Numbered from the stretch's first letter, positions 2,722-36,610 are shown. The stretch: DNA of 64,000 nucleotides from Rhizomicrobium sp. (GCA_035512055.1 DATKEP010000064.1:720-64719), one strand, 5' to 3'. A program made the numbers and translations. Notes: generated by a model from the letters alone, not told the origin.

Positions 2722-2731
2722 GCCACGCTAC

Positions 2732-3400: not shown

Positions 3401-3639
3401 GCCTTCAACTCGATCTCGTACTTCTCGATCACCGTATTGGCGAGCAGGTTTTCGCACATCGCTTTGAGCTCTCTCTTGGCCTCATCGGCATCGCTGCCCG
3501 ACAATTCCAGGTCGATGACTTTGCCCTGGCGCACCTCACCGACCGAGTCAAAGCCCAGACCATTCAAGGCATGGCCGATGGCTTTGCCCTGGGGGTCGAG
3601 AACACCATTCTTGAGGGTAATGAAGACGCGCGCTTTCAC
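3397..3639 (-). CDS. purS: Phosphoribosylformylglycinamidine synthase subunit PurS
   Basis: [13 protein letters not shown]...VRQGK...LLANTVIE. Confidence 0.97.
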
Positions 3640-4400: not shown

Positions 4401-4619
4401 GGCAGTGTTCCTGTCGCCCGTTGAAACCGCAATTTAGGGAGGTGGGGGCTCGGGGGCAATGATTCCCGCCGCGGCATCGGCGCATGGCAGGTTCCCGTCC
4501 ACAGAAATGTTTCAAATCAATAGCTTAGGGCGATTCCAGACGAGACACTTGCCATCGGCCTGGCAGCCGGACTGGACAGGGGGCCCCTTGGTCGTCTTCG
4601 AATGGCGAGAGGAGGGCGA

Positions 4620-6500: not shown

Positions 6501-7798
6501 CCGAAGACTCTCTTGAATATCGTGTCCACCTGCTGCAGGTGATAGCCAAGATCGAACATGGCTTCGAGCTTCGCCGCCGGCAAAGCCTTCGACACATCCG
6601 AGTCACCCTTGAGCAGGTCGAGCAGATTGCCTTCGCCGTTCCAGGCGCGCATGGCATTGCGCTGGACCAGCCGGTAGCTGTCCTCACGCGGCAGGCCAGC
6701 CTGGGTGAGCGCCAACAGCACGCGCTGGCTGTGCACCAGCCCGTGAGTGGCATCGAGATTCTTCTGCATGCGTTCGGGATAAACCACCAGCTTCTCGATC
6801 ACGCCGGTCATGCGCGCCAGCGCGAAGTCCAGCGTGATGGTGGCATCTGGACCGATATAGCGCTCCACCGACGAATGAGAGATGTCGCGCTCATGCCACA
6901 GCGCCACATTCTCCATCGCCGGGATGGCATAGCTCCTCACCATGCGCGCCAGGCCGGTGACATTTTCCGTCAGGACCGGATTGCGCTTATGGGGCATGGC
7001 GGAGGAGCCCTTCTGGCCCGGCGAGAAATATTCCTCGACCTCCAGGACCGCGGTGCGCTGTAAGTGGCGGATCTCGGTTGCCAGACGCTCCAGCGACGAG
7101 GCGACCACGGCCAGCGCGGCAAAATAGGCGGCATGGCGATCGCGCGGGATCACTTGCGTCGAGACCGGTTCGACTTTCAGCCCCATCGCCTTAGCGACAT
7201 GCTCTTCAACGCGCGGATCGATATTGGCGAAAGTGCCCACCGCGCCCGAAATGGCGCAGGTGGCGATTTCCTCCCGCGCCGCGGCCAGACGCGCCCGCGC
7301 GCGGCTGAACTCGGCATAATAAGTGGCGAGCTTGACGCCGAAGGTGGTGGGCTCGGCATGGATGCCATGGCTGCGACCGATGGTCGGCGTCATCTTGTAT
7401 TCGAAGGCGCGCTTCTTGAGCGCGGTCAGCAGTGCGTTTGTATCTTCGATCAACATGTCCACGGCGCGCGCCAGCTGGACGTTGAGGCAGGTGTCCAGCA
7501 CGTCGCTCGAAGTCATGCCCTGGTGCACGAAACGCGCTTCCGGTCCCACGATCTCGGCCAGGTGGGTGAGGAAGGCGATCACGTCATGCATGACCTCGCG
7601 CTCGATCTCGTCGATCCGCGACACGTCGAATTTCGCGTCCTTGCCCTTCTCCCACACCTTCCTGGCGGCCTCTTTGGGCACCACGCCCAGCCCGGCCAGG
7701 GCATCGGTGGCATGCGCCTCGATCTCGAACCAGATGCGGAATTTGGTTTCGGGCGACCAGATTTGAACCATCCGGTCGCGGGCGTAACGGGGAATCAT
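6497..7798 (-). CDS. purB: Adenylosuccinate lyase
   Basis: MIPRY start, HQGMTSSD, GRSHGIHAEP, GSSAMPHKRNP signature. Confidence 0.98.
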   Translation of the reverse strand: MIPRYARDRMVQIWSPETKFRIWFEIEAHATDALAGLGVVPKEAARKVWEKGKDAKFDVSRIDEIEREVMHDVIAFLTHLAEIVGPEARFVHQGMTSSDVLDTCLNVQLARAVDMLIEDTNALLTALKKRAFEYKMTPTIGRSHGIHAEPTTFGVKLATYYAEFSRARARLAAAREEIATCAISGAVGTFANIDPRVEEHVAKAMGLKVEPVSTQVIPRDRHAAYFAALAVVASSLERLATEIRHLQRTAVLEVEEYFSPGQKGSSAMPHKRNPVLTENVTGLARMVRSYAIPAMENVALWHERDISHSSVERYIGPDATITLDFALARMTGVIEKLVVYPERMQKNLDATHGLVHSQRVLLALTQAGLPREDSYRLVQRNAMRAWNGEGNLLDLLKGDSDVSKALPAAKLEAMFDLGYHLQQVDTIFKRVFG

Positions 7799-7920
7799 GG
7801 AACACCGGCAAGAAGTTGCCGCTGCTTCTATCCTGTCGGGGACCAAAGGGCAAAGCCGCCAGTTGACGCTGCCGCGGGGGACGGGCGTTACTGGTCCTGC
7901 CACGCCAACGGAGACAGGGC

Positions 7921-8232
7921 ATGTCCAATCTGTACGATTCCGAAGACATCAAGAAGCTGGGCAAAGTGGGCGCGGGCGCGCCCAAGGCCTGGGAGACGTT
8001 TCTCGCCTTCGACAAGGCGGCGCTGGGCGATGGCGCCATCCCCAAGAAATACAAGGAGCTGATGGCGCTGGCGGTGGCGCTCACCACCCAATGCCCCTAT
8101 TGCCTGGCCATCCACAAGGATAACGCCGCCAAGGCGGGCGCGACCGCAGAGGAGATTTCCGAGACGGTATTTATCGCCGCCGCCTTGCGCGCGGGCGCCG
8201 CCGTCACTCACGGCACGCATCTGATGGGATAG
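7921..8232 (+). CDS. Carboxymuconolactone decarboxylase / AhpD-like protein
   Basis: KYKELMALAVALTTQCPYCLAIH (CxxC-x-x-H), EEISE. Confidence 0.88.
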   Translation: MSNLYDSEDIKKLGKVGAGAPKAWETFLAFDKAALGDGAIPKKYKELMALAVALTTQCPYCLAIHKDNAAKAGATAEEISETVFIAAALRAGAAVTHGTHLMG

Positions 8233-8245
8233 GCCTTCGCCAGCG

Positions 8246-8947
8246 TCATGTGACGTAGTGGAACCCCGCCTCCTGCAGCAGGGGCAGGGTCGCAAGTGCG
8301 CCCGGCGTCAGGATCACGCCCGGCAAAAGATGGTTGGTGAGGTCGGCGGCGACCTCCTCCTGGCCGCCGGCGGAGCCTGCCGCGATGGCGCGGCCGGCTG
8401 CCGCCCAGATGGCGTTATGACAGGCCATGAAGATCACGCCGCGCTTCATCAGCACGGGAATAGAGAGATCCTGCGCATCGCCCTTGCCTGGCACGATCAG
8501 GCTGTTGGCGGCGAACTTGCCGTTGGTCAGCTTGGCAAGGCCATATTTGTCCCACGCCGCCTGGTCGAACAGCGCCATCTGAGCGTCGCCCCGTGTCATG
8601 GAAACGGTCAGGAAGTCGCGATTCTGGTAGGACAGGGTCTGGCCGTTCAGGGCGTTGCGCATATAGCCGGTCCAGCCGCTGGCCAGGTCTTTGTTGTCCC
8701 AAACCTGACGCGGGCTGCCGTGATAGGCTGCGACTTCGCGAATGGCGGCATCGTCCCACATGTCGCGCGTCTCCAGCACCAGCGGAACGCTCTTGAAATC
8801 GCGCCGGGGCTTGAGCCGGGAAAGGCGCGTTTCGAGTTCGGAGATGGTGGCGGCGCCGGTTGCGGCTGCGGCCGGTTCGGCTGTCGTGGCGGCAATGCCT
8901 GCGGCCAATGCAGCGGTCAATCCGGAAAGTGCGCGGCGCGTGAACAT
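8246..8947 (-). CDS. Tat-exported protein, probable DsrE/DsrF-like fold
   Basis: MFTRRALSG twin-arginine leader with AxA cleavage; RGVIFMACHNA and LLPGVILTPG...LQEAGF C-terminal motifs. Confidence 0.6.
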   Translation of the reverse strand: MFTRRALSGLTAALAAGIAATTAEPAAAATGAATISELETRLSRLKPRRDFKSVPLVLETRDMWDDAAIREVAAYHGSPRQVWDNKDLASGWTGYMRNALNGQTLSYQNRDFLTVSMTRGDAQMALFDQAAWDKYGLAKLTNGKFAANSLIVPGKGDAQDLSIPVLMKRGVIFMACHNAIWAAAGRAIAAGSAGGQEEVAADLTNHLLPGVILTPGALATLPLLQEAGFHYVT

Positions 8948-8991
8948 GGCAGCTCTCCTTTTCTTTTCCGGAATTCTAGCGCGTGGCGGTG

Positions 8992-9711
8992 TCAGAGCAA
9001 ACCCAGGGACTTGTTGCTGGCATGGCCGCCGCGGCCGATCACCAGATGGTCGTGCACGGACAGTCCCAGCGCCTTGGCGGCGGCCACGATCTCCCGTGTC
9101 ATCGATATGTCAGCTTTGGACGGCGTCGGATCGCCGCTGGGATGATTGTGCACCAGGATGATGGCTGAGGCCGACAGTTCCAGCGCGCGCTTGACGATCT
9201 CGCGCGGATAGACCGGCGTGTGATCCACCGTGCCCCTGTTCTGGACCTCGTCGGCGATCAGCACATTCTTGCGGTCCAGGAATAGCACGCGGAATTCCTC
9301 GCTCTCGGCCCGTGCCATGGCCGCCGTGCAATAGTCCAGCAGCGCCGACCAGGATGAGAGTGCCGGCCGGCCCATCACGCGGGTCTTGGCCAGCCTTTGG
9401 GCGGCGGCCTCCACGATCTTGAGATGGCTGGCCACCGCCTCGCCGACGCCCTTGATCTCCATCAGCCAGGCGCGGGGCGCAGCGATCACCTCGGCAAAAC
9501 TGCCGAAGCGCGCCAAGAGTGCCTTGGCCAGGGGCTCGGTGTCGCGCCGGGAAAGGGCGGCGAACAAAGTCAATTCCAGCAGTTTGTAATCGGGCATGGC
9601 ATCGGCGCCGCCCATGGCGAAGCGCGCCCCCAAGCGCTCGCGATGGCCGTCATTACCGTTCTCAAGACGCGCAGCACCAGGCGTCGTCGATGGTGCGTTC
9701 GCCTCGTCCAC
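8992..9711 (-). CDS. radC: RadC family protein (JAB/MPN domain)
   Basis: [38 protein letters not shown]. Confidence 0.95.
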
Positions 9712-9718
9712 GTGTTGC

Positions 9719-10552
9719 TCAGAGGTAAGGTGGTCTGTGAAGGCCCTTGGGCGAAAGCGTGAAAATTTCCACGCCTGTCTGCGTCACACCCACCGAATGT
9801 TCGAACTGCGCCGACAAGGAACGGTCGCGCGTCACCGCGGTCCAGCCGTCGCTCAGCACCTTCACCCCGAAGCCGCCCAGATTGATCATCGGCTCGATGG
9901 TGAAGAACATGCCGGGCTTGAGCACGATGCCGCCGCCGGGCTTGCCGTAATGCACGATGTTTGGCAGGGCGTGGAACACCTTGCCCAGGCCGTGGCCGCA
10001 AAAGTCGCGCACCACCGCGCATTTCTCCTGGGTCTCGGCAAAGGACTGGATGGCATGGCCAATGTCGCCCGTCGTGGCGCCCGGCTTCACTGCCGCGATG
10101 CCGCGCATCATGGAATCATAGGTGATCTCGACCAGGCGTTCGGCCTTCCGCTTGACCTCGCCCACCGGATACATGCGCGAGGTGTCGCCGTGCCAGCCAT
10201 CCAGGATGACGGTTACGTCGATATTTATGATGTCGCCGTCGCGCAAAGGCTTGTCGTTGGGAATGCCGTGGCAGACCACGTGTTTGATGGAAGTGCAGAC
10301 GGTATGGCGATAGCCGCGATAGCCCAGGCAGGCCGGAAGCGCCCCATGGGCGATGATGTAGTCATACGCGACCTTGTCGAGCGCAGCAGTGGTGCCACCC
10401 GGCTTGACCAGGGGCGCCAGCAGGTCCAGCACATCGGCGGCAAGCCGGCCGGCCCGGCGCATGCCCTCGAAATCGGCCGGATCGTGCAAGGTTATGGTGA
10501 AGTGCGCCTTGCGCGCGGCTTCAAAAGTGTCGGATTGGGCTAAGATGGTCAT
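9719..10552 (-). CDS. map: Type I methionine aminopeptidase
   Basis: [42 protein letters not shown]; start at ATG 10552. Confidence 0.97.
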
Positions 10553-10610
10553 GTTGTGAGGTAATATAGTATCCCCGGGCGATAAAACCAAAGCCCGGTA
10601 ACAGGAATTG

Positions 10611-10878
10611 GAGCATGTTTTTCCTAAGTGAAATCGCCCGCGCCGTAGGGATTTTGCGACGTGGGCAGAAGAAGGGCGAAGGCCGTATCGGGGAATACGG
10701 ACGAGCCCTTCGACGAACCCACGGCATAAAAGACCACGGCCCTTCGGGTTGCCGTCCGGCGGCCGCCCGCGACGTCGCCGCGCTCGACCGTATTGCCGAT
10801 ACGCTCTTCGCGCGGCTCCTGGCGGATCGCCTCGCCGGACGGCAACGCAGGCTATTTGCACTTAAGAAAAGCATGCTC
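10611..10878. repeat. MITE/REPIN-like element with imperfect terminal inverted repeats and two inverted internal hairpin modules
   Basis: Left gagcatgttttttcctaagtgaaat versus reverse complement of right gagcatgcttttcttaagtgcaaat; internal modules homologous to each other and to 15900-15978. Confidence 0.75.
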
Positions 10879-10881
10879 TAA

Positions 10882-11631
10882 ATGCCCAAAACGGCAGCAA
10901 TATTGGCGATCGGGGACGAGATCCTTTCGGGTCGTACCCAGGATACCAACAGCAATACCATCGCGCGGTTCCTGGCCAGCATGGGGATCGACCTGAAAGA
11001 GGTGCGGGTGGTGGGGGATGTGGAGGCGGAAATCGTCCCCGCCCTGAATGCGCTGCGGGATCGGTACGATTTCGTCTTCACCACCGGCGGCATCGGCCCC
11101 ACTCATGACGACATCACCGCTGATGCGGTGGCAAAGGCGTTCGGCCTGGACATCGGCTATCACCCGGAGGCCTATGCCATGCTGGAGGCGCGATATCCGC
11201 CTGGCGAATTCACCGACGCCCGCAAGCGCATGGCGCGCACGCCCCATGGCGCGTCACTGGTGGTCAATACGGTATCCGCCGCGCCGGGATTTCATATCGG
11301 CAATGTCTATGTGCTGGCAGGCGTGCCCAAGGTGATGGCGGCGATGCTGGAAACGATTGCGCTCGAACTGCCGCGCGGCCAGGCCATGACCAGCGTCACG
11401 GTCGAGGCCGACATGCCGGAAGGCAAGATCGCGGCCGGGCTGGCCTCCTTGCAAAAAGATCATCCGGAAATCGCCATCGGCTCCTATCCTTTCTACCGCG
11501 AAGGCGCCGCAAATCCCTTTGGCGCACAACTGGTGATACGGGGGCGCGACGCCGAGGCGGTCGAGCGGGTGGTTGTGGCGCTTGAACGCATGCTGAAGGA
11601 GCTTGGTGCTGCGCCGCGGCGTGTGAATTAG
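10882..11631 (+). CDS. Molybdopterin-binding / CinA-like protein (MoCF domain)
   Basis: IGDEILSGRTQDTN, TTGGIGPTHDDIT, AGVP, IGSYPF. Confidence 0.9.
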   Translation: MPKTAAILAIGDEILSGRTQDTNSNTIARFLASMGIDLKEVRVVGDVEAEIVPALNALRDRYDFVFTTGGIGPTHDDITADAVAKAFGLDIGYHPEAYAMLEARYPPGEFTDARKRMARTPHGASLVVNTVSAAPGFHIGNVYVLAGVPKVMAAMLETIALELPRGQAMTSVTVEADMPEGKIAAGLASLQKDHPEIAIGSYPFYREGAANPFGAQLVIRGRDAEAVERVVVALERMLKELGAAPRRVN

Positions 11632-11691
11632 CTTTTCCGCCGCCGCATGAAATGACAGGCTCTGCTCAACCAAAATGCAGGGGAAAATACC

Positions 11692-12870
11692 ATGGACATC
11701 AAGAAGCGCGATTTTCTGACGGGTGTATCGCTTATCGGCGCCGGCCTTGCCGCGGCCAGCGGCGACGCCCTGGCCCAGGGACGCAGCCCCCAGAATCCTG
11801 ACGGCGGTTATCCGCCCGGCGTTCCCAAGGCCACCGGCCGCAGCATGCTGGACAGTCCGCACTATATCGGCACTGCCAGCAAGGGCTATGGCTTCAAGGC
11901 GAACTGGTCGCGCACATTGCCGATGGTTCCCACCGTCGATCCCAACTACAAGCCGCGCCGCATCAACAAGGCAATCGAGCTATGGGAAGACAACCAGGTC
12001 GTCGCTTATGCGGAATACGGACCTTCCGGTGCACCTGACACCTATGAGGAAGGCAAGCGCATGGCCAAGACCTATTGCGACGCCATCAATTACGAGATGG
12101 AGAATGACTCCTTCAACTTCGATGGCCTGCGCAACTTCATGCAGGGTTTGGTCGATGGCGGTCCCACGCCGTCCGGCCACCGCACGCCGATGGTGTTCGT
12201 CACCCTGCCGGCATGGGGCTTCGACGGTCCTTCGATGCGCGCCAATGTCTGGCAAATCCATCAGTCGCTGGCTGCGGGCGCCCATGGTTGCCTGATCTGC
12301 GAAATGGAATCGCCGGAGGCGGCCGAGATCGCCATCGCGGGCGGGCGTTACAAGTGGACCTGGCCGGGGGTGGAGGAGCTTCCGATTGAAGGCGTGCGGG
12401 GCGCAGGCAGCCAGGCTTTCGCGGCTCACATCTGGGGCCTTAGCCAGGATGAATATCTCCGTGTCGCCGATACCTGGCCGCACAATCCCAAGGGCGAGAT
12501 CACCATGGGCTTCAAGCTCGAGAACCGCCGCTCAGCCATGGCGGCCGAGCAGCTGATGGCGGTGAAAGGCCTGGCCTTTGCCGAACCCGGTCCCAGCGAC
12601 AATGGCTGGTCCCACCTGCAATGGGATGCGATCCGGGGAGACTTGACGCGGGAACAGCGCGCTGGCCTGCCGGCCTCCAAGCGCTTGGAGGAAGACCTGG
12701 AACGCATTCGGCTCGCGGCCAAGGCGAACAACATCAAATGGCTGGGCAATGGCCCGCCTGGCGCCAATCCCCAGCAGGAGATCGACCAGGGAAGGCGCAT
12801 GGGGCCGGCTGGTACCGAGGATCGGGTGCAGGCTGACCGGCTCTATACCAAGCGGAAAATGCCGTACTGA
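11692..12870 (+). CDS. Exported HpcH/HpaI aldolase/citrate lyase-fold protein (divergent)
   Basis: Tat-like leader MDIKKRDFL...ALA; DAINYEMEN, FKLEN, AFAEPGPSD match HpcH-type positions. Confidence 0.6.
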   Translation: MDIKKRDFLTGVSLIGAGLAAASGDALAQGRSPQNPDGGYPPGVPKATGRSMLDSPHYIGTASKGYGFKANWSRTLPMVPTVDPNYKPRRINKAIELWEDNQVVAYAEYGPSGAPDTYEEGKRMAKTYCDAINYEMENDSFNFDGLRNFMQGLVDGGPTPSGHRTPMVFVTLPAWGFDGPSMRANVWQIHQSLAAGAHGCLICEMESPEAAEIAIAGGRYKWTWPGVEELPIEGVRGAGSQAFAAHIWGLSQDEYLRVADTWPHNPKGEITMGFKLENRRSAMAAEQLMAVKGLAFAEPGPSDNGWSHLQWDAIRGDLTREQRAGLPASKRLEEDLERIRLAAKANNIKWLGNGPPGANPQQEIDQGRRMGPAGTEDRVQADRLYTKRKMPY

Positions 12871-12877
12871 TCTTGGT

Positions 12878-12959
12878 TGTCATTCCCGCGCACGCGGGAA
12901 TCTAACTTCGTCCTGAGTGCGATAGCTGAAGTTGGATGCCCGCGTTCGCGGGTATGACA
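12878..12959. repeat. REP-like palindromic element, copy 2
   Basis: tgtcattcccgcgcacgcgggaatct...tggatgcccgcgttcgcgggtatgaca, with internal aacttc/gaagtt inverted repeat. Confidence 0.85.
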
Positions 12960-12967
12960 AGAAGGGC

Positions 12968-13837
12968 CTATTCCAACTTCAGCGCCTTCGCCGCCGTCGT
13001 GAACGCCGTCTGTGCGTCCTTGTTGGTGGCGAAGGTTTTGCGCGCCGTGTCCAGCGCTTCCTTCGCCTTCTGGTTTTCACCCAGCACGGTATAGGCGCGC
13101 ATCAGCCTCACCCAGCCCAGCGCATCGTTGGGATCGGTCTTCAAACGCGCCGCCAGCATCTCGACCATGGCGCGGGGATTGGGCGCGCTGCCCGGCGTTT
13201 GTGATGTCAGCATGGCGATGCGGTCCACCAGGATCTGATGCAGCGGCGCGGTCGCGGGTACGTCAGCGAGCAGGTCCTGCCACAAGGCAAGCGCGCCGGC
13301 GCGGTCGTGGCGAGCTGCCTTCGCCATTCCCAGATAGAAGCGTGCGGGCCCGTTCTTGGGATCGGCCTTCAGAGCGGCGTTGAAGGCGTCTTCGGCTTCA
13401 GGCGGCACCTGGCCGCCACCGTCAGCCACCAGCACTTCGCCAAAGGCCGCGTCCAGCCCCGCATCGCCCTTGCCGGTCAGCGCGATCACTTTCGCCAGCG
13501 CCTTGGCGGCATCGCGCGGATCGCCCGCCGCCATATAGGCCTGGCCCAGATAGCGCCAGGCGCGCGCATCTTCGGGATGGGCGCGCACGCGGTCGATCAG
13601 GTAAGGCACCAGGCCGTTGATCTCGCGGATGTTGAGACCTTGCGCCGACCTTTCGGCCAGATGCGGCCGGCCCACCAGAAAATAGGTGCCGCCGCCGACG
13701 GCCAGCATGAACAGTGTAATGGCGCCCAGCATCAGCGCGCGGCCCTTCTTTTGGGTCATGCGCCACAGCGGCACAGTGGCGAAAGCGACCGCGAGCAATG
13801 CGATCACGACAAAACCGATCACAGGAACCAGGCTCAC
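12968..13837 (-). CDS. CycH/CcmI-like TPR protein (c-type cytochrome biogenesis factor family)
   Basis: Two N-terminal TM segments, TPR repeats (ARAWRYLGQAYM), C-terminal LAARLKTDPNDALGWVRLMRAY. Confidence 0.8.
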   Translation of the reverse strand: MSLVPVIGFVVIALLAVAFATVPLWRMTQKKGRALMLGAITLFMLAVGGGTYFLVGRPHLAERSAQGLNIREINGLVPYLIDRVRAHPEDARAWRYLGQAYMAAGDPRDAAKALAKVIALTGKGDAGLDAAFGEVLVADGGGQVPPEAEDAFNAALKADPKNGPARFYLGMAKAARHDRAGALALWQDLLADVPATAPLHQILVDRIAMLTSQTPGSAPNPRAMVEMLAARLKTDPNDALGWVRLMRAYTVLGENQKAKEALDTARKTFATNKDAQTAFTTAAKALKLE

Positions 13838-14586
13838 GACTTTTTCCCCTGGCTTTTGGGGCCTCTATATTTGTTGCGCACCAGGGCCACGATCATGCCG
13901 CGGATGGTGCGCACTTCCTGATCGCTCAGGCGGGAACGCATTATCATGGCGCGGATGTTGCGCACCATGGTTTCGCGCTTGGCGGGGGGAAACAGGAACT
14001 CGGCCGCGTCCAGCTCCTTTTCCAGATGCTCGAACAGGCCGCTCAATTCCTCGCGCGTGGCGGGCACCGCTACGGAGGGTCTTGTGCGCAAGGCAGGCGT
14101 GGTGTCGCCCGATTTGAGCCACTCATAGCCCAACAGCAGCACCGCCTGACCCAGATTCAGCGACCAGAAATCGGCGGTCGGGATGGTGATCACGGCGTCG
14201 CACAGGCTCATTTCGTCATTGTCGAGGCCGGCGCGTTCGCCCCCGAACAGGATGGCGGTGCGCACGCCGGTCTGGCATGCCGCGCGCAAACGCCGTGCAC
14301 CCGCTTCGGGGGTATGGATTTCCTTCACCACGTCACGGCCGCGCGCCGTGGTTGCCAGCACCAGCTGATAGGGGGCTAATGCTTCGGCCGCCGTAGGATA
14401 AATCTTTGCGGCCTCCAATATGTCGCCCGAGCCCGAGGCCAGCATCTGGGCCTTGTCATTGGGCCATTCCATCTTTGGCGCGATCAGGACCAGCTCCTTC
14501 ATCCCAAAATTCTTCATCGCCCGGGCGGCGGCGCCCACATTTTCGCCCATCTGGGCTTTCGACAGGATGACGGCAGGTGGGGTCAT
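13834..14586 (-). CDS. SPOUT RNA methyltransferase, TrmJ/LasT family
   Basis: [37 protein letters not shown]. Confidence 0.92.
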
Positions 14587-29170: not shown

Positions 29171-29355
29171 GCGCGCTACCCACAGTCGATTCCCACACCG
29201 CGAAGTTCCTCGCGCCTAAGCGGCTGATTCGAGCCATTAATTATTTTGACCGGGAAGTGCTGAACACCGTTCGCGCCGCCTAGAAATTCGTTAACAAATT
29301 CAGCCATTTAGTGCTCGGAAACGTTTGGTTAACCAAATCTTGTATTGTGGGGTTA

Positions 29356-31524
29356 ATGAGCGCTTCCAAATCCCTTTCCGAAGCCGGCCTTGGCGTACCG
29401 ACCGGCGCCTGGCGCTGGGCGTCCTTGGCCTTCATTTTGCTGGCCCTGATAGCCGCCGGCCTCACCCTTGCGGCGCCGCAGGTTGCAGGTCTTGCTGGTT
29501 ACGCGCTTCTACTGGGCATTGCCGTGGTGGCGGTGCTTTTTGTCTTCGCGATCTGGCCGCGCGGCGGCGGCGCCACCCGGGACGCACTGCGGGTCGCCGA
29601 AGCGGCAGGCAAGGCCAACATCGCCTGGGCGATCACCGGCGAGGGCGGCGCGGTGCTGGACTGCAACCCCGTTTATCGCCGCATGGCCGGCGTGAGTGAA
29701 AAGGAAACGCCGCCGCCACCGGAACTGGCGCTGGCAGGCGAGCCTAGCGCGGCCGTGCTCTATCGCCTGTCGCGCGATGCCGCCGAAGGCCGCGCCCGCG
29801 AGGAAACATTCCAAGTATTGCCGGGGCTCGAGATCGTCGCGGCAGTTCGCTCCTTGCCGGACAAACAGGCGGTCTGGTGGTTTACACCGCGCCTTGCCGC
29901 TTCGACATCGCCGCAGCCGGTCCTGTCGCGGCCCGCGAAATCCGCTCCTGAACCTGCCGTCTCCGCGCCGGTTGAGCCTGCACCTGTTGCGCCAGTCGCG
30001 ACTGCACCTATGGCGCCTGCCTCCGAGGCTTCGCAGAATATCGGCGATCTCTTCCGCGACGCGCCCATGGGAGTGGCCTTTGCCGATGCCCATGGCGCAA
30101 TCGGTGATGCCAATGCGGCACTGGCAAGGTTCTTCGGCGTTTCCGCAAGCCTTGCCGGAAGGAATTTCGGCGACCTGGTCGACGCTGGCGACCGCGCCCA
30201 GGTCATGGCGCTGATCACACGCGCCGCAGCCGGCGAGATGGGGTTGAAGGCGATCGAATTGCGCGGGCTCAAGGGAGCCAATGGCGATGAGCGGATGGCC
30301 GAGCTTCTGGCCAGTCCCATGGCCGGCAAGGCGATCCTCTATCTGGTGGACGTTTCCGAACAGAAGGCACTGGAAACCAAATTCGCCCAGTCGCAGAAGA
30401 TGCAGGCGGTGGGTCAGCTCGCCGGCGGCGTGGCGCATGATTTCAACAACCTGCTCACCGTTATCATCGGCAATTGCGAATTCCTTTTGATGCGCCATCA
30501 GGCGGGCGATCCCTCATTCAAGGAAATCAACGAGATTCATCAAAACGCGCTCAGGGCGGCTGCGCTGGTCAGCCAGCTGCTGGCCTTCAGCCGCAAGCAG
30601 ACGATGCAGCCCAAGACGCTGGCGCTGGGCGAGGTGATCGGCGAACTCGCACAAATGCTGCGCCGCCTTGTGGGAGAGGGCATTGCGCTCAATGTCGAAC
30701 GCGATGCCGATCTCTGGCCGGTGCATGCGGACGAAGCCCAGCTCGGCAATGCCATCATCAATCTGGTCGTCAATGCCCGCGATGCCATGCCGTCAGGCGG
30801 CACGGTGTCGATCCGCACGGCCAATGAAACCATAACGCAAGCCGGCGCGCTGGGCAGCGCCATCATGCCGCCGGGCGATTATGTGCGCATCGAAGTGTCC
30901 GACACCGGCACCGGCATGTCGAAGGAGATTCAGAGCAAGATTTTCGATCCCTTCTTCACCACCAAGCCGGTGGGCCAGGGCACAGGACTTGGCCTTGCCA
31001 CCGTCTATGGCATCGTCAAGCAGTCCGGCGGTTTCATCACGGTCGACAGCGAGTTGGGCCAGGGAACCATCTTCAAGGTCTATCTGCCGCGCAAGATGGA
31101 TGCCGGCGAGGCGGCGCCCGTCGAAGCAGCACCTGCCGTCACCCGCGACATTACCGGGCAGGACACAATCCTTCTGGTGGAAGACGAAGAGGCGGTCAGG
31201 AGCTTTGCGGCACGCGCGCTGCGCATGCGCGGTTACAATGTGCTGGAAGCGTCGGGCGGCGAGGAAGCGCTGGAACTCGTCAAGAGCGACAACAACAAGA
31301 TCGACCTGATCATCACCGATGTGGTGATGCCCAACATGGACGGCCCCACCATGGTGCGCCATGTCAAGGCGCTCAAACCGAACCTTGCCGTCATTTTCAT
31401 GTCGGGTTATGCCGAAGAAGCCTTCCGCCGCAATGACCAGAATTCGGAAGACATCCACTTCCTGCCCAAGCCCTTCGGCCTCAAGCAATTGGCCGCCAAG
31501 GTGAAGGAAGTGCTGGCGGGTTAA
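29356..31524 (+). CDS. cckA: Hybrid sensor histidine kinase CckA
   Basis: Two TM helices, PAS-like region, SQKMQAVGQLAGGVAHDFNNLL, NLVVNARDAM, GTGLGLATVYG, C-terminal receiver; follows flhB; start uncertain (GTG 29311 or ATG 29356). Confidence 0.9.
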   Translation: MSASKSLSEAGLGVPTGAWRWASLAFILLALIAAGLTLAAPQVAGLAGYALLLGIAVVAVLFVFAIWPRGGGATRDALRVAEAAGKANIAWAITGEGGAVLDCNPVYRRMAGVSEKETPPPPELALAGEPSAAVLYRLSRDAAEGRAREETFQVLPGLEIVAAVRSLPDKQAVWWFTPRLAASTSPQPVLSRPAKSAPEPAVSAPVEPAPVAPVATAPMAPASEASQNIGDLFRDAPMGVAFADAHGAIGDANAALARFFGVSASLAGRNFGDLVDAGDRAQVMALITRAAAGEMGLKAIELRGLKGANGDERMAELLASPMAGKAILYLVDVSEQKALETKFAQSQKMQAVGQLAGGVAHDFNNLLTVIIGNCEFLLMRHQAGDPSFKEINEIHQNALRAAALVSQLLAFSRKQTMQPKTLALGEVIGELAQMLRRLVGEGIALNVERDADLWPVHADEAQLGNAIINLVVNARDAMPSGGTVSIRTANETITQAGALGSAIMPPGDYVRIEVSDTGTGMSKEIQSKIFDPFFTTKPVGQGTGLGLATVYGIVKQSGGFITVDSELGQGTIFKVYLPRKMDAGEAAPVEAAPAVTRDITGQDTILLVEDEEAVRSFAARALRMRGYNVLEASGGEEALELVKSDNNKIDLIITDVVMPNMDGPTMVRHVKALKPNLAVIFMSGYAEEAFRRNDQNSEDIHFLPKPFGLKQLAAKVKEVLAG

Positions 31525-31572
31525 GCGCCGATTGCGCTTGCAAAGTGCATTCCTGCCTCTATGGTCCGGCCC

Positions 31573-31908
31573 ATGAAAAAGAGCCTTGCCGTGACCTTTT
31601 GCCTGCTGCTTGCAGGCTGCTCCGAAGCCGACTGGAACCATGCGCTGAATTACACCGGCATGGGTGGGGACGAGGATTCCGCCACCCAAGCAGGCGCCTC
31701 TGCGGTCGCACCCAAGTCGGCGACCATCTCAGCGACCACGTCAACCGCCGCAGCCGCGCCCGAAGCGCCTGCACAAGCCGTCCCCAACAGCGATATCTGC
31801 CGCGCGGTGGCCACGCAGGACGCCACGTCCAACGATTTCGATCCGGCGACGCAAGCGCGCGTCTTTGCGCGCAGTTTTTCGCAGTGCGTCGCTATCTACT
31901 CACGCTGA
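31573..31908 (+). CDS. Small hypothetical lipoprotein
   Basis: MKKSLAVTFCLLLAGC lipobox; Ala/Thr linker; Cys pair in the C-terminal domain. Confidence 0.7.
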   Translation: MKKSLAVTFCLLLAGCSEADWNHALNYTGMGGDEDSATQAGASAVAPKSATISATTSTAAAAPEAPAQAVPNSDICRAVATQDATSNDFDPATQARVFARSFSQCVAIYSR

Positions 31909-33001
31909 ACCGAAATTCCGTGACCTGGTGATACTCCGTGTCCTGCCGCAGCAGGGCGCTTGGAAATGACGGAATGTTCGGCGCATTGGGAAAGGCCTGC
32001 GCTTCCAGCGCGACGGCGCTATGGATCTGATAGCCCTTGATCAGCGCCACACTCGGCGGCGCGTAATTGGCGCTATAGACCTGAACTCCGGCTTGGGTGG
32101 TCCATTCTTCAAGCCTGCGTCCCGATTTCGGATCATCCAGCCGCGCCGCCAGCCGCAAGGTGCCGGGTTTGCCGTTGATTGCGAAATTCTGGTCGAAGCC
32201 ATGGGCGCGCTGGATGGCGGGATCGGGATCGTTGATGTGGGCGCCGATCGCTGTGGGGCGGCGGAAGTCGAAGGCGGTGCCGGCGACGTTTCGCATTTCG
32301 CCGGTCGGCACATTCTTTTCGTCAACCGCGGTGATCTGATCGGCATTCACCGTCAGGAGCTGGTCAAGCACCGGACCTGACGCATCACCCGCCATGTTGA
32401 AATAGGAATGATTGGTGAGGCTGATGATCGTGTCCTTGTCGCTGACCGCGCGATAGGCGATGCGTAAGCTATTGTTGCGCGTGAGGGTATAGGTCACGCT
32501 TACATGCAGCGTGCCCGGAAACCCCATGGTGCCGTTGCGATCGCGCAGGGACAGAACCAACTGCGGCTCCACGCCATCCTTGGGGGCTGCGTCCCAGACC
32601 CGCTCGTCATAGGGCTTGTTTTCGGCCTCGTTCAGCACATAAGCATCGCGTGCCACCCGATACTCGATGTGGTTGATCTGGTAGCTGTTGTCCTTGATGC
32701 GGTTGGCGAAGCGGCCGATGGTGGCGCCGTAGCGGCCCTTGTAATCCAGGCTGGTATAGTCGGCCAGGCGGTCGAAGCCCTGCACGACGTCGGCCAGCTT
32801 GCCGTCGCGTCCGGGCACGCGGATGGCGGTAATGATCGCACCATAATTGGTGATACTGGCTTGTACGCCATTGGCGTTTGTCAATGTGAACAGGTCTACG
32901 CCCTTGCCGGCAACCCCGCCCCAGGCCGTGACAGTGATATTGGCCTCGGCCGGCAGCGTTATTGCGAGCCACGCAGCGGCGGCGAAGCAGACAAATCTCA
33001 T
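31892..33001 (-). CDS. galM: Aldose 1-epimerase family protein with signal peptide (copy 1, divergent)
   Basis: ITNYGA, GATIGRFANRI, GFPG, TNHSYFN, GFDQNF, ALEAQAFPNAPN; start at ATG 33001. Confidence 0.88.
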   Translation of the reverse strand: MRFVCFAAAAWLAITLPAEANITVTAWGGVAGKGVDLFTLTNANGVQASITNYGAIITAIRVPGRDGKLADVVQGFDRLADYTSLDYKGRYGATIGRFANRIKDNSYQINHIEYRVARDAYVLNEAENKPYDERVWDAAPKDGVEPQLVLSLRDRNGTMGFPGTLHVSVTYTLTRNNSLRIAYRAVSDKDTIISLTNHSYFNMAGDASGPVLDQLLTVNADQITAVDEKNVPTGEMRNVAGTAFDFRRPTAIGAHINDPDPAIQRAHGFDQNFAINGKPGTLRLAARLDDPKSGRRLEEWTTQAGVQVYSANYAPPSVALIKGYQIHSAVALEAQAFPNAPNIPSFPSALLRQDTEYHQVTEFRFSVSR

Positions 33002-33189
33002 GAATCCCTCCAAAGAATGGCGAGCGTACAAAGCGATTCCAGCCTGCGCCATATCACGCCCGCCATATTGCGCACGCGAAGTGGATGTTGCTTGACCTTT
33101 GCGTGCAGCTGACGTTTGACCAAGCGATGCACGCCTGATTATCTGTCGCCACGGTCGCCGGTGAGCCGACCGAGGGAGAGGAAATTCCA

Positions 33190-34212
33190 ATGAAAAATCT
33201 GCTGTTTTCGGCCGCGCTGGTCGCGGCTGTCGGGTTCGGCACGGTTGCGGCTTTCAGTCAGGCGAATGAGGATGAAGTCGCCGCCCGCCAGGCGAAATAT
33301 CCGCTGGCGGCCAAGGCGGGCCAAGACAGCCACGCCTTCGACCAGGCGCCGGCCGGCGCGACCAACCAGGGCAAGTTTGACGACAAGACCTGGAAATTCG
33401 GTCACGCCTGGGATGCGCCGCCGGGGTCCAAGATATGGAACCCGGTCAAGATCAAGATGATGCGGGGCGGCATGGTCACGGGCGGCACGGTATTCTCTGC
33501 CACCGATCCGGAAACCTATTGCGCGATGGCCAATGCCGGTTACGACTTCATCTGGACCGAGCATCAGCATGACGCGCGGGACTGGAAGACCACGCAGCAC
33601 ATGTGGGCAGCTTGCCCCTATGCCAAGGCGGTGCCGGGCGTGCGCGTGGCCTATACCGACGAGCGCGAAGAACAGCATGCGCTGGACGCAGGCGCGCTGG
33701 TGCTGGTGGTGCCCACGGTGCGTTCTTATGAAGAAGCCATCAGAGCGCGCGACTGGGCCTATTTCCCGCCGCTCGGACGGCGCAGCAATGGCGGCGGCCA
33801 GGCCTTTGCTCTCTACAACAATGTGCCGGGCGGCTATCGCAATACCATCAACGACAATCTGGTCCTGGTCCTGATGATCGAGACCCTGGCGGGCCTGAAG
33901 GATGCCGACCGCATCGCCAAGATTCCCGGTGTCACCGCGGTGTTCGCGGCCTCTGGCGATCTGGGCAATCATTCCGGCTACAAGCAGAACGATCCCGACT
34001 ATGAACGCGAGATCAACATCGTCCATGACGCCGCCATCAAGGCGGGCGTGCGGCTGTGCGGGCCTTATGCCTGGCGCGACCGACCCGATTTCACCTGTTT
34101 CCAGGCGGGCAGCGAAGGCGGTGCTATCGCACGCGGCGTGAAGGACGAACTGGGCAAGGACTGGAACACCCAGCCGGTCCCCGAAGTCGGCCCCTGGGCG
34201 AAAACGAAGTAA
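33190..34212 (+). CDS. HpcH/HpaI aldolase family protein with Sec signal peptide
   Basis: GYDFIWTEHQH, GVRV, ALDAGA, YFPPLGRRS, MIET, ASGDL. Confidence 0.85.
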   Translation: MKNLLFSAALVAAVGFGTVAAFSQANEDEVAARQAKYPLAAKAGQDSHAFDQAPAGATNQGKFDDKTWKFGHAWDAPPGSKIWNPVKIKMMRGGMVTGGTVFSATDPETYCAMANAGYDFIWTEHQHDARDWKTTQHMWAACPYAKAVPGVRVAYTDEREEQHALDAGALVLVVPTVRSYEEAIRARDWAYFPPLGRRSNGGGQAFALYNNVPGGYRNTINDNLVLVLMIETLAGLKDADRIAKIPGVTAVFAASGDLGNHSGYKQNDPDYEREINIVHDAAIKAGVRLCGPYAWRDRPDFTCFQAGSEGGAIARGVKDELGKDWNTQPVPEVGPWAKTK

Positions 34213-34312
34213 TTTCCAACCCCATCCGGTCTGGCGGCGCAAGTGCTGCCAGACCGCCTTCCCCTTGCCGCGCTGTGCGCGAAGGGAAGAAGGGTCTGGG
34301 TTGACCAGAACC

Positions 34313-34340
34313 AGGGCGCCGTGTCCGCGGCGCCCTTTTC
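34313..34340 (+). terminator. Intrinsic terminator downstream of the aldolase gene
   Basis: agggcgccg/cggcgccct stem plus ttt. Confidence 0.65.
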
Positions 34341-34443
34341 ATTCGCTTCATTGTCCTCAGTTTGGGTGGTGCTTTCGTTGATTCTGGCAGCGCGTCGTGC
34401 GGTTTATCCCGGTTAACAAGGGTTCCCTGGGTGTCCGTGATAG

Positions 34444-34701
34444 ATGCGTAAGTATTCCTGCCTAGTCGCCGCCATCGCCTTGATTGCATCGCCCTCCGCA
34501 TGGGCAGGCACACTCGCCGCTGGAAAGCCGGCCGGTGTCCGACAGGCGGCATTGACGACCGGGAGCTCGATCGTGGCCGGCGGCCTCGGTGCCATAGGCA
34601 TCGCCGTCATGGCCGTGGCGCTCTCGGGTAGCAACAACGGCACCGCCAATCGGTCGTCAGGCAACACCACCACGACGACGACCACCACCGCGACGTCCTG
34701 A
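34444..34701 (+). CDS. Small secreted protein with a second hydrophobic helix and poly-Thr tail
   Basis: Signal peptide (SAWA), GKPAGVRQA segment, AGGLGAIGIAVMAVAL helix, NTTTTTTTTATS end; GC3-rich codons. Confidence 0.75.
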   Translation: MRKYSCLVAAIALIASPSAWAGTLAAGKPAGVRQAALTTGSSIVAGGLGAIGIAVMAVALSGSNNGTANRSSGNTTTTTTTTATS

Positions 34702-34730
34702 ATCGGTTTAAAACGGCTGGCCAGGCTACG

Positions 34731-35843
34731 CTACTTGGCGGTCGAAAAACGGAACTCCGTCTTCTGATAGAAGATCTGTCCCGGCTTCAGCTCGGTGGTC
34801 GGGAAGGCGGGAATATTCGGCGCATTGGCGAAATGCTGGGTCTCCAGGCAGAAGGCGCCACGCTTGATATATTGCGCGCCGCCCTTGCCGATAATCGGCT
34901 TCTCATTGTTGGGCAGATAAAGCTGGATGCCCGGCTGGGTGGTCCACACGTCCATTACCCGGCCTGACGTCGGTTCCACCACATGGGCGGCGGGGCGAAG
35001 CTTGCCCATGACTCCTCGCACGATGAAGTTGATGTCATAGCCCGGCGTGGCCACGATCGCCGGATCGGGCCCGTTAATGTCCTTGCCGATGGCTTTCGGC
35101 TTGGTGAAGTCAAAGCCGGTGCCCGCCACTTTCATCACTTCGCCGGTCGCCATGTGATTGGCGTCGGTCGGTGTCACCGCATCGGAGAAGACCTGCAGGC
35201 GATGGTTCAGCACGTCGCCATTGCCCGCGCCTTTCAAGTTGAAATAGGAATGGTTGGTGGGATTGAGCACCGTCGGCTTGTCGGTCGTGGCGCGGTATTC
35301 GATGTTGAGCGAATTGTTGGCCGTGAGGGTATAGATCACGGTGAAATCCAGATTGCCGGGATAGCCCTGGTCGCCGTCAGGCGAGACTATGTGCAGGATC
35401 AGGGACGGCGAAGGCCCGTCCAGCGGGGTGGCGCTGTAGACGTGATAGGAAAAGCCGATCGGGCCGCCATGGATGTTGTTTGGCCCTGCATTGGCCTTGA
35501 GGTGATAGGTCTTGCCTTCCAGCGTGAACTGGGCGCCGCCGATACGGTTGGCGAAGCGGCCGATCACCGCGCCATAGGTCGTGCCCGTCTTGTAGCCGTC
35601 GAGCGCGTCATAGCCGAGCACGACATCTGCCAATTTGCCGTCGCGGTCGGGCACATTCAGGCTGACCAGATAGGCGCCGTAATTGGTGATGCGTACGCTC
35701 ATGCCATGGGAGTTGGTCAGGGTGTAGATGTCCACCGCCTGATGATCGGCGGTTTCGCCCCAGGGCGCCTTGTCGATTTTCGCCTCGGCCGGCAACGCGG
35801 CCAGAAGGCCCGCGCTTACAAGCGCGGCGGCAAAGGATTTCAT
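34731..35843 (-). CDS. galM: Aldose 1-epimerase (mutarotase) with signal peptide (copy 2)
   Basis: GAVIGRFANRI, NNIHGG, NPTNHSYFNL, GYDINF, FCLETQHF; start at ATG 35843. Confidence 0.93.
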   Translation of the reverse strand: MKSFAAALVSAGLLAALPAEAKIDKAPWGETADHQAVDIYTLTNSHGMSVRITNYGAYLVSLNVPDRDGKLADVVLGYDALDGYKTGTTYGAVIGRFANRIGGAQFTLEGKTYHLKANAGPNNIHGGPIGFSYHVYSATPLDGPSPSLILHIVSPDGDQGYPGNLDFTVIYTLTANNSLNIEYRATTDKPTVLNPTNHSYFNLKGAGNGDVLNHRLQVFSDAVTPTDANHMATGEVMKVAGTGFDFTKPKAIGKDINGPDPAIVATPGYDINFIVRGVMGKLRPAAHVVEPTSGRVMDVWTTQPGIQLYLPNNEKPIIGKGGAQYIKRGAFCLETQHFANAPNIPAFPTTELKPGQIFYQKTEFRFSTAK

Positions 35844-36061
35844 GGCATTTCCCAAGTTTTTCTATTGCGCGCGGGAGGTTAGCGGCTGGTTCCCGGGCTG
35901 AACAGGCCGAAATGTATGGCCTAACTGCCCCGCATTCCTCAAAGGGAATGGGCCAGGCCGGCTATGAACAGCAGGCCCGCGGTCGGCACTTCGCAGGGCC
36001 TTCGGGTTTACCATCCGGCGCGGATATTGTGTCCGGGATGTCATTTTTCGTTCATCTCAAA

Positions 36062-36089
36062 TTGCGCCCTAAGGCGTTTCTGCTACATT
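36062..36089 (+). promoter_or_regulatory. Putative sigma70-type promoter (TTGCGC-N16-TACATT)
   Basis: ttgcgc 36062-36067, gctacatt 36082-36089; resembles the Caulobacter housekeeping consensus; no ORF follows. Confidence 0.45.
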
Positions 36090-36095
36090 TTGCGA

Positions 36096-36610
36096 CAGGT
36101 TTGGAATCTTCGGTAAGACCCCGGAAGGCTCCAGGCTTGGGAGAGGGAGCGGCTTAGTCTGCTCCCGATCCTCCCCTCCTTCGCGGCGCGATGAGTTTGG
36201 GCCGAGCCCATCAGGTGCACCGTGTGAACCGGCAGCACACGGAGCATTGAGTCAGCCTGCTGAGTTTTGGACCGGTTATCCGCCCTCACAAGAAAGACAA
36301 CCGGCCCGGTCCTCCGGGTACTCGCTGGCGACTCCGGTTACGGAGTCCGCTGGGGGCCTTCTAAGGGTCCCTGGCCTCGCCCGATACGAACCGTATCAAT
36401 CGAGCTGAAATTCCGATTTGTTCGGTCCGTCATTCGCTGATTGCGAAAATCGCAAGACCATCAACAGCACTAAAATTACAACCAAAGTCTTTCAGGCGAC
36501 CTTAAGTGACCCTGTGTAAACATCTGTCCTCCCCCGGATTCTCCCTCTAACCCTGGGGGCTCCAACATTGGGCTCGGAAGGCATAGGACCCTTCCGGGCC
36601 CTTCTTTTTT
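36096..36610 (+). ncRNA. Candidate large structured non-coding RNA (family not identified)
   Basis: Putative promoter upstream, about ten consecutive hairpins (most need G-U pairs valid only on +), 12-bp terminator with U-tract at the 3' end, no credible + strand ORF. Confidence 0.45.
36570..36610 (+). terminator. Intrinsic terminator with no upstream + strand CDS
   Basis: gggctcggaagg (36570-36581) / ccttccgggccc (36590-36601) + ttctttttt. Confidence 0.75.

Follow-up and report, generated by a model that had tools for sequence, protein, structure and literature searches.

Genes and transcription units at the locus

We analyzed a stretch of 64,000 nucleotides from Rhizomicrobium sp. (GCA_035512055.1, DATKEP010000064.1:720-64719), hereafter the window, and focused on three neighboring genes that encode a predicted exported aldolase of the HpcH/HpaI fold and two aldose-1-epimerase-family proteins (mutarotases), termed here GalM-A and GalM-B. 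An earlier note on this DNA had interpreted the three genes as a candidate module for periplasmic sugar processing. They occupy a slot that is bordered on one side by a hybrid histidine kinase gene (29311-31524, plus strand) and on the other, from position 36893 onward, by an IS1595 remnant, recA, and alaS. The slot contains the following features:

31892-33001, minus strand: GalM-A, divergent aldose-1-epimerase-family protein, predicted to be exported (369 aa; leader MRFVCF...PAEA; PF01263)
33002-33189, no strand: intergenic region between GalM-A and the aldolase gene (188 bp, divergent)
33190-34212, plus strand: class II aldolase of the HpcH/HpaI fold, predicted to be exported (340 aa; Pfam, NCBIfam, and PDB matches, AlphaFold2 [AF2] model)
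34313-34336, plus strand: terminator-like hairpin, about 100 nt past the aldolase stop codon (10-bp stem with 8 G-C pairs, then TTTTCATT)
34444-34701, plus strand: small open reading frame (ORF) of 85 aa (signal peptide, one hydrophobic helix, Thr-rich tail)
34731-35843, minus strand: GalM-B, canonical aldose 1-epimerase, predicted to be exported (370 aa; leader MKSFAA...PAEA)

The aldolase gene lies on the strand opposite to both GalM genes. It forms a divergent, head-to-head pair with GalM-A across the 188-bp spacer and is convergent with GalM-B, from which it is separated by 518 bp. Ribosome-binding sites (RBSs) precede the starts of all three genes, namely, GGAGGG for GalM-A (ATG at 33001), GGAGAGG for the aldolase, and a weaker GGGAAA for GalM-B. 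Across 24 syntenic loci, the aldolase side of the 188-bp spacer has kept GTTTGACC and, at a distance of ~17 nt, TTATCT-like boxes, which together correspond to promoter-like TTGACC and TTATCT-like boxes, and the GalM-A side has kept a block that reads CCATATTGC. No common palindromic operator was seen in the spacers of these 24 loci, and the idea of an operator shared by GalM-A and the aldolase was rejected, as just separate conserved promoter-like blocks are present. A consensus promoter scan of the spacer in the window gave no match, nor did a search of Rfam with positions 31500-36300. The hairpin that follows the aldolase gene combines its G+C-rich 10-bp stem with a T-run. The product of the small ORF is conserved at 36 to 52% identity in the same slot of seven syntenic loci and is best explained, judging from its sequence, as a small exported membrane protein. 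Taken together, the slot between the kinase gene and recA, whose content varies, is best explained as housing four genes that are transcribed separately and encode extracytoplasmic proteins.

Fold and catalytic site of the aldolase

The protein matched the Pfam family HpcH_HpaI (PF03328) over residues 113-269 with an E value of 5.6e-13 and 49.1 bits (gathering cut-off, 25). It matched 21 family members in the PDB at E<0.01, and its nearest solved relatives by sequence were the class II pyruvate aldolases 7v8t, YfaU (2vws), and HpaI (4b5s), with E values of ~1e-17. The AF2 model, which has a pLDDT of 89.9, retrieved 4mf4, 2vws, 4b5w, 2v5k, and 7nnk in Foldseek (E, ~1e-16; target template modelling [TM] scores, 0.80 to 0.84) and superposes on HpcH, HpaI, YfaU, and SwHKA as a (beta/alpha)8 barrel of the HpcH type. 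The layout consists of the leader (residue 1 to about 23-25), an N-terminal extension (36-89), the TIM barrel (~90-290), and a C-terminal tail; both the extension and the tail are conserved, and characterized enzymes have neither. H127, R152, E231, and D257 align to His45, Arg70, Glu149, and Asp175 of HpaI, and across 38 family members, H127, E231, and D257 do not vary, with conservation of at least 90% for R152. The sequence and the model are thus best explained by a class II, divalent-metal-dependent aldolase of the HpcH/HpaI type.

Among characterized enzymes, the best mechanistic model is Escherichia coli HpaI/HpcH (2v5j, 4b5s; target TM, 0.79 to 0.83), all four catalytic equivalents of which are kept. 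HpaI is, however, a cytoplasmic enzyme of aromatic catabolism, and no aromatic-pathway genes were found near the window aldolase. E. coli RhmA/YfaU (2vws) has the same fold and the same His, Arg, and Glu/Asp metal site, and its pairing with RhmD, a dehydratase that acts together with an HpcH-type aldolase on nonphosphorylated sugar acids, follows a similar logic. The identity to RhmA amounts to just ~23-25%, with 58 bits against a cut-off of 441 bits. Moreover, RhmA is cytoplasmic and has no leader, whereas the window aldolase possesses a leader, a 55-residue N-terminal extension, and a C-terminal tail and, unlike RhmA with RhmD, has no dehydratase adjoining it.

Scores and cut-offs for the NCBIfam equivalogs (HpaI, GarL, RhmA) were 74.8/368.8, 69.2/393, 68/406.75, and 58.3/441 bits. 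Since the scores are far under every cut-off, the protein represents a separate clade. This distance (75 versus 369 bits for HpaI) is also what would be expected if the aldolase fold served another function in vivo, such as that of an oxaloacetate or beta-keto-acid decarboxylase or of a binding or structural protein. The D-x-E-H motif of characterized aldolases, which reads E-x-Q-H in the window protein, the long conserved extensions at both termini, and the loss of the Arg in related exported clades are in line with such a change. However, within the clade itself, the His, the Arg, and the two metal ligands are fully or almost fully invariant, and the fold superposes on active aldolases, so we regard a nonaldolase function as distinctly improbable.

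Export signals

Leaders were judged by a heuristic based on the most hydrophobic 12-residue stretch (Kyte-Doolittle), a basic n-region, and an AXA-type site. The hydrophobic cores of GalM-A, the aldolase, and GalM-B scored 2.27 to 2.39 and begin at residues 3 to 6, compared with scores of at most 1.45 for six cytoplasmic controls, and all three proteins have a basic n-region and AXA-type sites at residues 20-25. The aldolase frame has its first start codon at 33190, and codons 2 to 24 include no ATG, GTG, or TTG. Residues 36-89 are strongly conserved across phyla and confidently modelled. An internal start, which the earlier note had named as an objection to export, is therefore unlikely for the aldolase. 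The other structural claims of that note also held: Pfam confirmed the domains and coordinates of the three proteins, the four HpaI residues are those kept, and the signal peptides on both GalMs and the aldolase are borne out at the level of the hydrophobicity/AXA heuristic.

Aldolase relatives down to 30-34% identity have hydrophobic leaders that are unrelated in sequence and are often followed by Pro/Ala/Gly-rich linkers, and a leader was found throughout the aldolase clade. These features make an extracytoplasmic location of the aldolase very likely. All four of its Cys residues (111, 142, 290, and 303) are invariant in 70 homologues; disulfides were dropped as an argument for export because the Cys111 equivalent occurs also in a cytoplasmic HpaI. 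In a separate observation, the metagenomic protein P0271 (883 aa, ENA) consists of a leader-bearing amidohydrolase (Amidohydro_1/3) fused to a mature aldolase that has no leader of its own.

The leaders might instead be start-codon artifacts or uncleaved anchors that face the cytoplasm, in which case the proteins would act there. That the case for export comes from a signal heuristic leaves some room for this view. It conflicts with the lack of an alternative start in the aldolase leader, with the strong RBSs that precede the aldolase and GalM-A, and with diverged leaders that retain the same features in all homologues down to 30-34% identity. Furthermore, the conserved segment begins directly after the leader, the basic n-region would place the protein body outside according to the positive-inside rule, and P0271 sets the mature aldolase behind a leader-bearing amidohydrolase. 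We thus consider action in the cytoplasm highly improbable.

Distribution of the aldolase family

Homologues with 64-93% identity were retrieved from at least 237 places among species-representative genomes; the carriers include Micropepsales/Rhizomicrobium-like Alphaproteobacteria (the lineage of the window), many Acidobacteriota, and Steroidobacteraceae. A search with the paralogues added Burkholderiales, Verrucomicrobiota, and Armatimonadota. In a library clustered at 50% identity, 129 representatives were retrieved at E<1e-30, compared with 5816 at E<1e-3. The genome of the window encodes three exported-type aldolases, namely, the window copy and those on contigs C77 (78% identity) and C73 (58%), as well as cytoplasmic HpcH genes. 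By sequence, the family is distinct from cytoplasmic HpcH. Joint Genome Institute (JGI) pipelines automatically name it 'RhmA'.

Searches of the literature returned no paper on a periplasmic class II aldolase, none on a class II aldolase with a signal peptide and pyrroloquinoline quinone (PQQ), none of relevance to a periplasmic HpaI with a signal peptide, and nothing relevant on enolase-superfamily dehydratases exported by the twin-arginine translocation (Tat) pathway. The clade of predicted exported aldolases is, as far as its sequences tell, real, widespread, and undescribed.

The two mutarotases

Both GalMs matched the Pfam family Aldose_epim (PF01263; cut-off, 27), GalM-A with 2.9e-70 and 237.5 bits and GalM-B with 5.3e-85 and 285.9 bits; they are 46% identical to each other. 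In the NCBIfam galactose-1-epimerase subfamily PRK11055 (cut-off, 240), GalM-B passes with 274.6 bits and GalM-A fails with 226.1, and neither reaches the cut-off of the NCBIfam Leloir GalM equivalog. The active site of GalM was reportedly described by Thoden et al. in 2003 as consisting of His96, His170, Asp243, and Glu304 (Lactococcus lactis numbering). Compared with GalM of L. lactis (1l7j) and of humans (1snz), GalM-B shares the full set of four catalytic-site motifs (IHGG, NHSYFN, YDINF, and LETQ). GalM-A retains the equivalents of His170, Asp243, and Glu304, whereas the His of the HGG motif (His96 in L. lactis, His107 in the human enzyme) is replaced, with LNEA instead of IHGG. The same replacement was seen in all GalM-A orthologues, in which this region reads L-[NK]-[ED]-x...N-[KR]-P-Y. 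The closest paralogue of GalM-A (G000:C73:63268-64407) also swaps the catalytic Glu for Gln (FQTQ versus LETQ). On the basis of these motifs, GalM-A and its C73 paralogue may form a noncanonical or inactive mutarotase subfamily.

Export of a GalM is by itself not new, as an exported GalM-family mutarotase, Mro of Acinetobacter calcoaceticus, has reportedly been on record since the 1980s (Gatz et al. are said to have described it in 1986). Compared with known GalM systems, the eight leader-bearing GalMs in the genome of the window are unusual.

Conservation of the gene neighborhood

We read the neighborhoods of 156 fetched aldolase loci. A GalM near the aldolase was found in Pseudomonadota only, in Micropepsales, and always in the same synteny block, which is made up of flagellar export genes, the hybrid kinase, the slot, recA, and alaS and whose flanks are as well conserved as the GalMs. 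Within the slot, the aldolase is constant and the number of GalM copies varies from none (L122) through one (L028-L030, L125, L128, L132) and two (most loci) to four (L115). In a Rhizomicrobium metagenome-assembled genome (MAG), genes for a short-chain dehydrogenase/reductase (SDR), a CHRD protein, and a cytochrome-c-fused PQQ dehydrogenase lie co-directionally between the aldolase and GalM-B (L007, 7141-10830), and in L004-L008, another small gene is inserted. Pairs of CHRD and PQQ dehydrogenase genes occur about five times in the genome of the window. No GalM was found near the aldolase in the fetched loci of Acidobacteriota, Verrucomicrobiota, and Burkholderiales, and none adjoins the C77 or C73 paralogue.

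Because GalM adjacency is confined to one synteny with equally conserved flanks, it offers no evidence beyond shared ancestry. The proposal of the earlier note that the three genes form a module was accordingly not borne out, since they are separate, oppositely oriented units with GalM adjacency in Micropepsales only; the co-occurrence in other genomes on which it depended is absent outside the one synteny block, so that the module claim in its narrow form fails.

The three genes may then be neighbors by descent only, with the aldolase as a stand-alone periplasmic enzyme of another pathway and the GalMs merely sharing its slot. Such an arrangement would agree with the fact that the aldolase gene is equipped with an RBS, promoter-like boxes, and a terminator of its own, that the flanks of the slot are conserved like the GalMs, and that its inserts vary (L007; L004-L008). 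We regard this view as somewhat unlikely, for reasons given below together with the proposed route.

By analogy with NanM, direct coupling was also considered, in which GalM-A would open or anomerize cyclic 2-keto(-3-deoxy) sugar acids and feed the open-chain form to the aldolase. The head-to-head pair with its 188-bp spacer is kept in most of the Micropepsales clade, and a GalM-A in which the HGG His is replaced and the catalytic His, Asp, and Glu are kept would agree with an altered substrate, which might be acidic. That a mutarotase can serve a lyase pathway has a precedent in NanM, a periplasmic sialic acid mutarotase that speeds the supply of the right keto-sugar acid form to the pyruvate lyase (NanA) pathway (PMC8461474). 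NanM, however, is a beta-propeller and does not have the GalM fold, NanA belongs to the class I aldolases and works in the cytoplasm, and sialic acid genes are lacking here. The head-to-head pairing is restricted to one order, where L028-L030, L122, L125, L128, and L132 do without it; it is likewise absent from the C77 and C73 paralogues and from all orthologues fetched from other phyla. With no shared operator found, and given that the substitution in GalM-A could equally mean lower activity or another aldose, we consider direct coupling improbable.

Neighbors of the aldolase in other loci

Outside the synteny block, the neighboring gene seen most often encodes a soluble PQQ dehydrogenase that has a leader and belongs to the glucose/quinate/shikimate family. 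It is located immediately downstream, in the same direction and with a gap of 0 to 231 bp, in seven loci, which come from Bryobacterales, another lineage of Acidobacteriota, and Opitutales. PQQ dehydrogenases within 6 kb of the aldolase were observed in 17 of the 156 loci and were concentrated beside the gene and not spread across the flanks. The adjacency of PQQ dehydrogenase and aldolase requires at least five changes on the aldolase tree. Further enzymes of sugar-acid metabolism were found less frequently. A Tat-signal dehydratase of the enolase superfamily (MR_MLE) lies 86 bp downstream of the aldolase in L149 and, in the related L135, ~1.2 kb upstream with one called ORF between them. SGL lactonases adjoin the aldolase in L163 and L150, and a second HpcH-fold gene is near it in L159.

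Flavin mononucleotide (FMN) 2-hydroxyacid dehydrogenases were found near the aldolase in four of the 156 loci. The operon on contig C73 of the window's genome (L097, G000:C73:44000-62000; 4873-13981, minus strand) comprises genes for a TonB-dependent receptor, a JmjC/cupin protein, the aldolase, two Tat-signal FMN 2-hydroxyacid dehydrogenases, and a cytochrome c, and an Acidobacteriaceae MAG (L137) has a similar combination of the aldolase with two FMN dehydrogenases. An operon of this kind was rejected as the general context of the aldolase (3 of 76 loci by tblastn, 4 of 156 overall). Amidohydrolases of the P0271 type adjoin the aldolase in L041, L068, L116, and L163. Fusions were rejected as Rosetta-stone evidence: among three long proteins, two resemble merged or truncated gene calls, and P0271 alone looks genuine.

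Predicted exported sugar-acid enzymes in the genome of the window

Every step of a nonphosphorylative sugar-acid route is encoded in leader-bearing form in the window's genome, in genes that are scattered. Leaders were found on 8 of the 9 GalMs and on all 5 SGL lactonases (Sec or Tat; contigs C126, C26, C29, and, twice, C117), and 10 of the 18 enolase-superfamily (MR_MLE) dehydratases have twin-arginine leaders. The latter are encoded at the following positions:

Tat dehydratases: C116:47041-48306, C175:4349-5566, C29:15351-16664, C8:16043-17482, C128:225-1481
Tat dehydratases, continued: C3:34310-35584, C2:28295-29650, C83:6671-8170, C45:4027-5424, C39:2894-4153

The PQQ-propeller matches, about 37 in number, include soluble PQQ dehydrogenases with leaders. 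Two GalMs adjoin PQQ dehydrogenases, and a distance of 2.6 kb separates one GalM from an exported lactonase. In one of the two PQQ cases, L177 (G000:C16:28000-36103), the neighbors of the exported GalM are an exported alpha-L-arabinofuranosidase of the GH51 type and the PQQ dehydrogenase, whose gene is truncated where the contig ends. An operon in L176 (G000:C18:44000-52000; 2486-6687, plus strand) encodes a Tat-signal soluble PQQ dehydrogenase, an exported NHL/SGL propeller, and a Tat-signal TIM barrel protein resembling xylose isomerase; its PQQ dehydrogenase and the one linked to the aldolase in Solibacteraceae share 50% identity.

A candidate periplasmic route and its alternatives

These data are consistent with the aldolase being the last step of a dispersed periplasmic route for the nonphosphorylative oxidation of sugars or sugar acids, with exported GalMs at its entry. 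We prefer this reading to the alternatives and consider it quite possible while stopping short of calling it probable. An exported mutarotase would supply the right anomer (step 1), from which a soluble PQQ-type aldose dehydrogenase would make the lactone (step 2). An exported SGL lactonase would open the lactone to the aldonic acid (step 3), and a Tat-exported enolase-superfamily dehydratase would convert the acid to the 2-keto-3-deoxy acid or, alternatively, a Tat-exported FMN 2-hydroxyacid dehydrogenase would convert it to the 2-keto acid (step 4). The exported aldolase would cleave the product to pyruvate (or hydroxypyruvate) and a short aldehyde (step 5), with Arg152 and His127 acting on a metal-pyruvyl complex bound by Glu231 and Asp257, and the aldehyde would then be taken up or further oxidized. 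The domains, the leaders, the fold, the conservation of catalytic residues, and the arrangement and neighborhoods of the genes are observed, whereas we infer the export of the proteins as such, the substrates, the order of the steps, and any functional tie between the aldolase and its two neighboring GalMs.

In the periplasm, the route would parallel the RhmD/RhmA, Weimberg-Dahms, and De Ley-Doudoroff schemes of the cytoplasm. The cytoplasmic version of the dehydratase and aldolase steps is represented by RhmD, of the enolase superfamily, and RhmA/YfaU, of the HpcH family. The extracytoplasmic route of mutarotation, oxidation, and aldol cleavage put forward in the earlier note survives as a general idea, aldol cleavage included, in view of the exported enzyme set; its order is incomplete, because formation of a 2-keto-3-deoxy acid needs lactonase and dehydratase steps, both of which it left out. 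Aldose-1-epimerase genes accompany oxidative pentose pathways (AraM; PMC5507952).

Several observations weigh against this route. At the locus itself, the aldolase gene runs opposite to both GalM genes, and the terminator-like hairpin ~100 nt after the stop codon implies that the aldolase transcript is monocistronic. The adjacency of the GalMs reflects nothing more than synteny within the lineage, L122 does not have it, and GalM-A lacks the substrate-positioning His. In the genome of the window, no exported dehydratase, lactonase, or PQQ dehydrogenase was found beside any of the three exported aldolases. The gene pqqC was found neither in this genome, which is 98% complete, nor in a genome of the same genus, as compared with its presence in 10 of 61 genomes of the class; without pqqC, either the quinoproteins depend on PQQ that is scavenged or they do not use PQQ at all, and the organism may be a PQQ scavenger or its quinoproteins may be 'empty'. 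Most of the 156 aldolase loci have no pathway partner at all. Their recurring exported neighbors are a pair of M20 peptidases with a VWA protein, M13 and M16 peptidases, and amidohydrolases, which hint at a different or broader role of the aldolase. Finally, we know of no precedent for the release of pyruvate outside the cytoplasm.

Some of these points agree with the stand-alone enzyme introduced above. In that case, the aldolase could possibly cleave 4-hydroxy-2-oxo acids into which exported FMN 2-hydroxyacid dehydrogenases have converted imported hydroxy acids, act on keto acids derived from peptides or amino acids, or condense pyruvate with aldehydes from periplasmic PQQ alcohol dehydrogenases. 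The C73 operon joins the aldolase with FMN dehydrogenases and a cytochrome c, peptidase and amidohydrolase neighbors recur, one amidohydrolase-aldolase fusion exists, and the very high conservation across phyla would suit one fixed general substrate. However, exported peptidases are common in these phyla, so their adjacency is likely due to chance, and the PQQ dehydrogenase, lactonase, and Tat-dehydratase neighbors in several lineages, together with the exported enzyme set of the genome, fit a sugar route better.

Relation to known systems and significance

A known counterpart of the proposed sugar route outside the cytoplasm is oxidative fermentation. Acetic acid bacteria and pseudomonads possess a periplasmic PQQ glucose dehydrogenase as well as gluconate and 2-ketogluconate dehydrogenases. 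There, as in the proposed route, quinoproteins and flavoproteins oxidize sugars outside the cytoplasm, and the electrons pass to the respiratory chain. Oxidative fermentation, however, stops at keto-aldonic acids, and the genome of the window differs in having no pqqC. Textbooks place class II pyruvate aldolases, sugar-acid dehydratases, and lactonases in the cytoplasm, and to our knowledge, neither a periplasmic dehydratase step nor a periplasmic step of C-C cleavage is known.

Should the route operate, it would constitute the first extracytoplasmic C-C cleavage in central sugar catabolism: hexoses and pentoses would be oxidized and split into pyruvate and a small aldehyde before crossing the inner membrane. 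In this organism, a complete periplasmic route would rely on scavenged PQQ. It is conceivable, but in our judgment unlikely, that such a nonphosphorylative sugar route is carried out in full in the periplasm of many soil bacteria (Micropepsales, Acidobacteriota, and some of the Verrucomicrobiota and Burkholderiales). If the reading is correct, part of the carbohydrate or hydroxy-acid catabolism of hundreds of uncultured soil species would take place outside the cytoplasm, which would change models of carbon and electron flow in abundant soil oligotrophs and the view of pyruvate and small aldehydes as leaked public goods. The automatic name 'RhmA' would also need to be changed. Secreted, probably robust metal-dependent aldolases would in addition be of interest for biocatalysis.

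Two further proteins encoded in the window

The earlier note had drawn attention to two other genes of the window, which are listed here as context:

4602-6500, plus strand: soluble PQQ dehydrogenase of the glucose/quinate/shikimate family (TIGR03074; 27 kb from the cluster)
11692-12870, plus strand: distant HpcH-fold protein with a Tat(KR) leader (hhalign; 20 kb from the cluster)

The first is indeed a soluble, leader-bearing PQQ dehydrogenase, although it lies 27 kb off and is not linked to the cluster. It scored 639 bits with TIGR03074 over profile positions 150-782 and 1.1e-213 with the Pfam PQQ family; because the TIGR03074 match spans these positions only, the protein has no membrane anchor. 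It is ~30% identical to two PQQ dehydrogenases from partner loci that were matched over their full length (L079, L051). As a partner of the aldolase it was rejected, owing to the distance of 27 kb and to this low identity.

The second was described in the earlier note as an exported aldolase-fold protein, and hhalign agrees in identifying a distant relative of the HpcH fold with a Tat-like leader. The protein has no Pfam match and no BLASTP similarity to the window aldolase. A BLASTP link between the two was thus discarded, and their kinship is visible at the profile level alone: the family of the 11692 protein aligned to the aldolase family over 199 columns with a probability of 96% and an E value of 2.8e-9, and one of its relatives (L159:6703-7674) matches PF03328 directly. 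The leader is of the Tat-like KR type; this copy has no counterpart of Arg70 and carries Asn at the position of the His. The protein is one of eight to nine paralogues in the genome, the others being encoded on contigs C144, C52 (twice), C73, C97, C125, C28, and C6. Tat(KR) leaders (MDIKKRDFL...) and the absence of the catalytic Arg are features of this paralogue family, one member of which is located directly after a PQQ dehydrogenase on C73.

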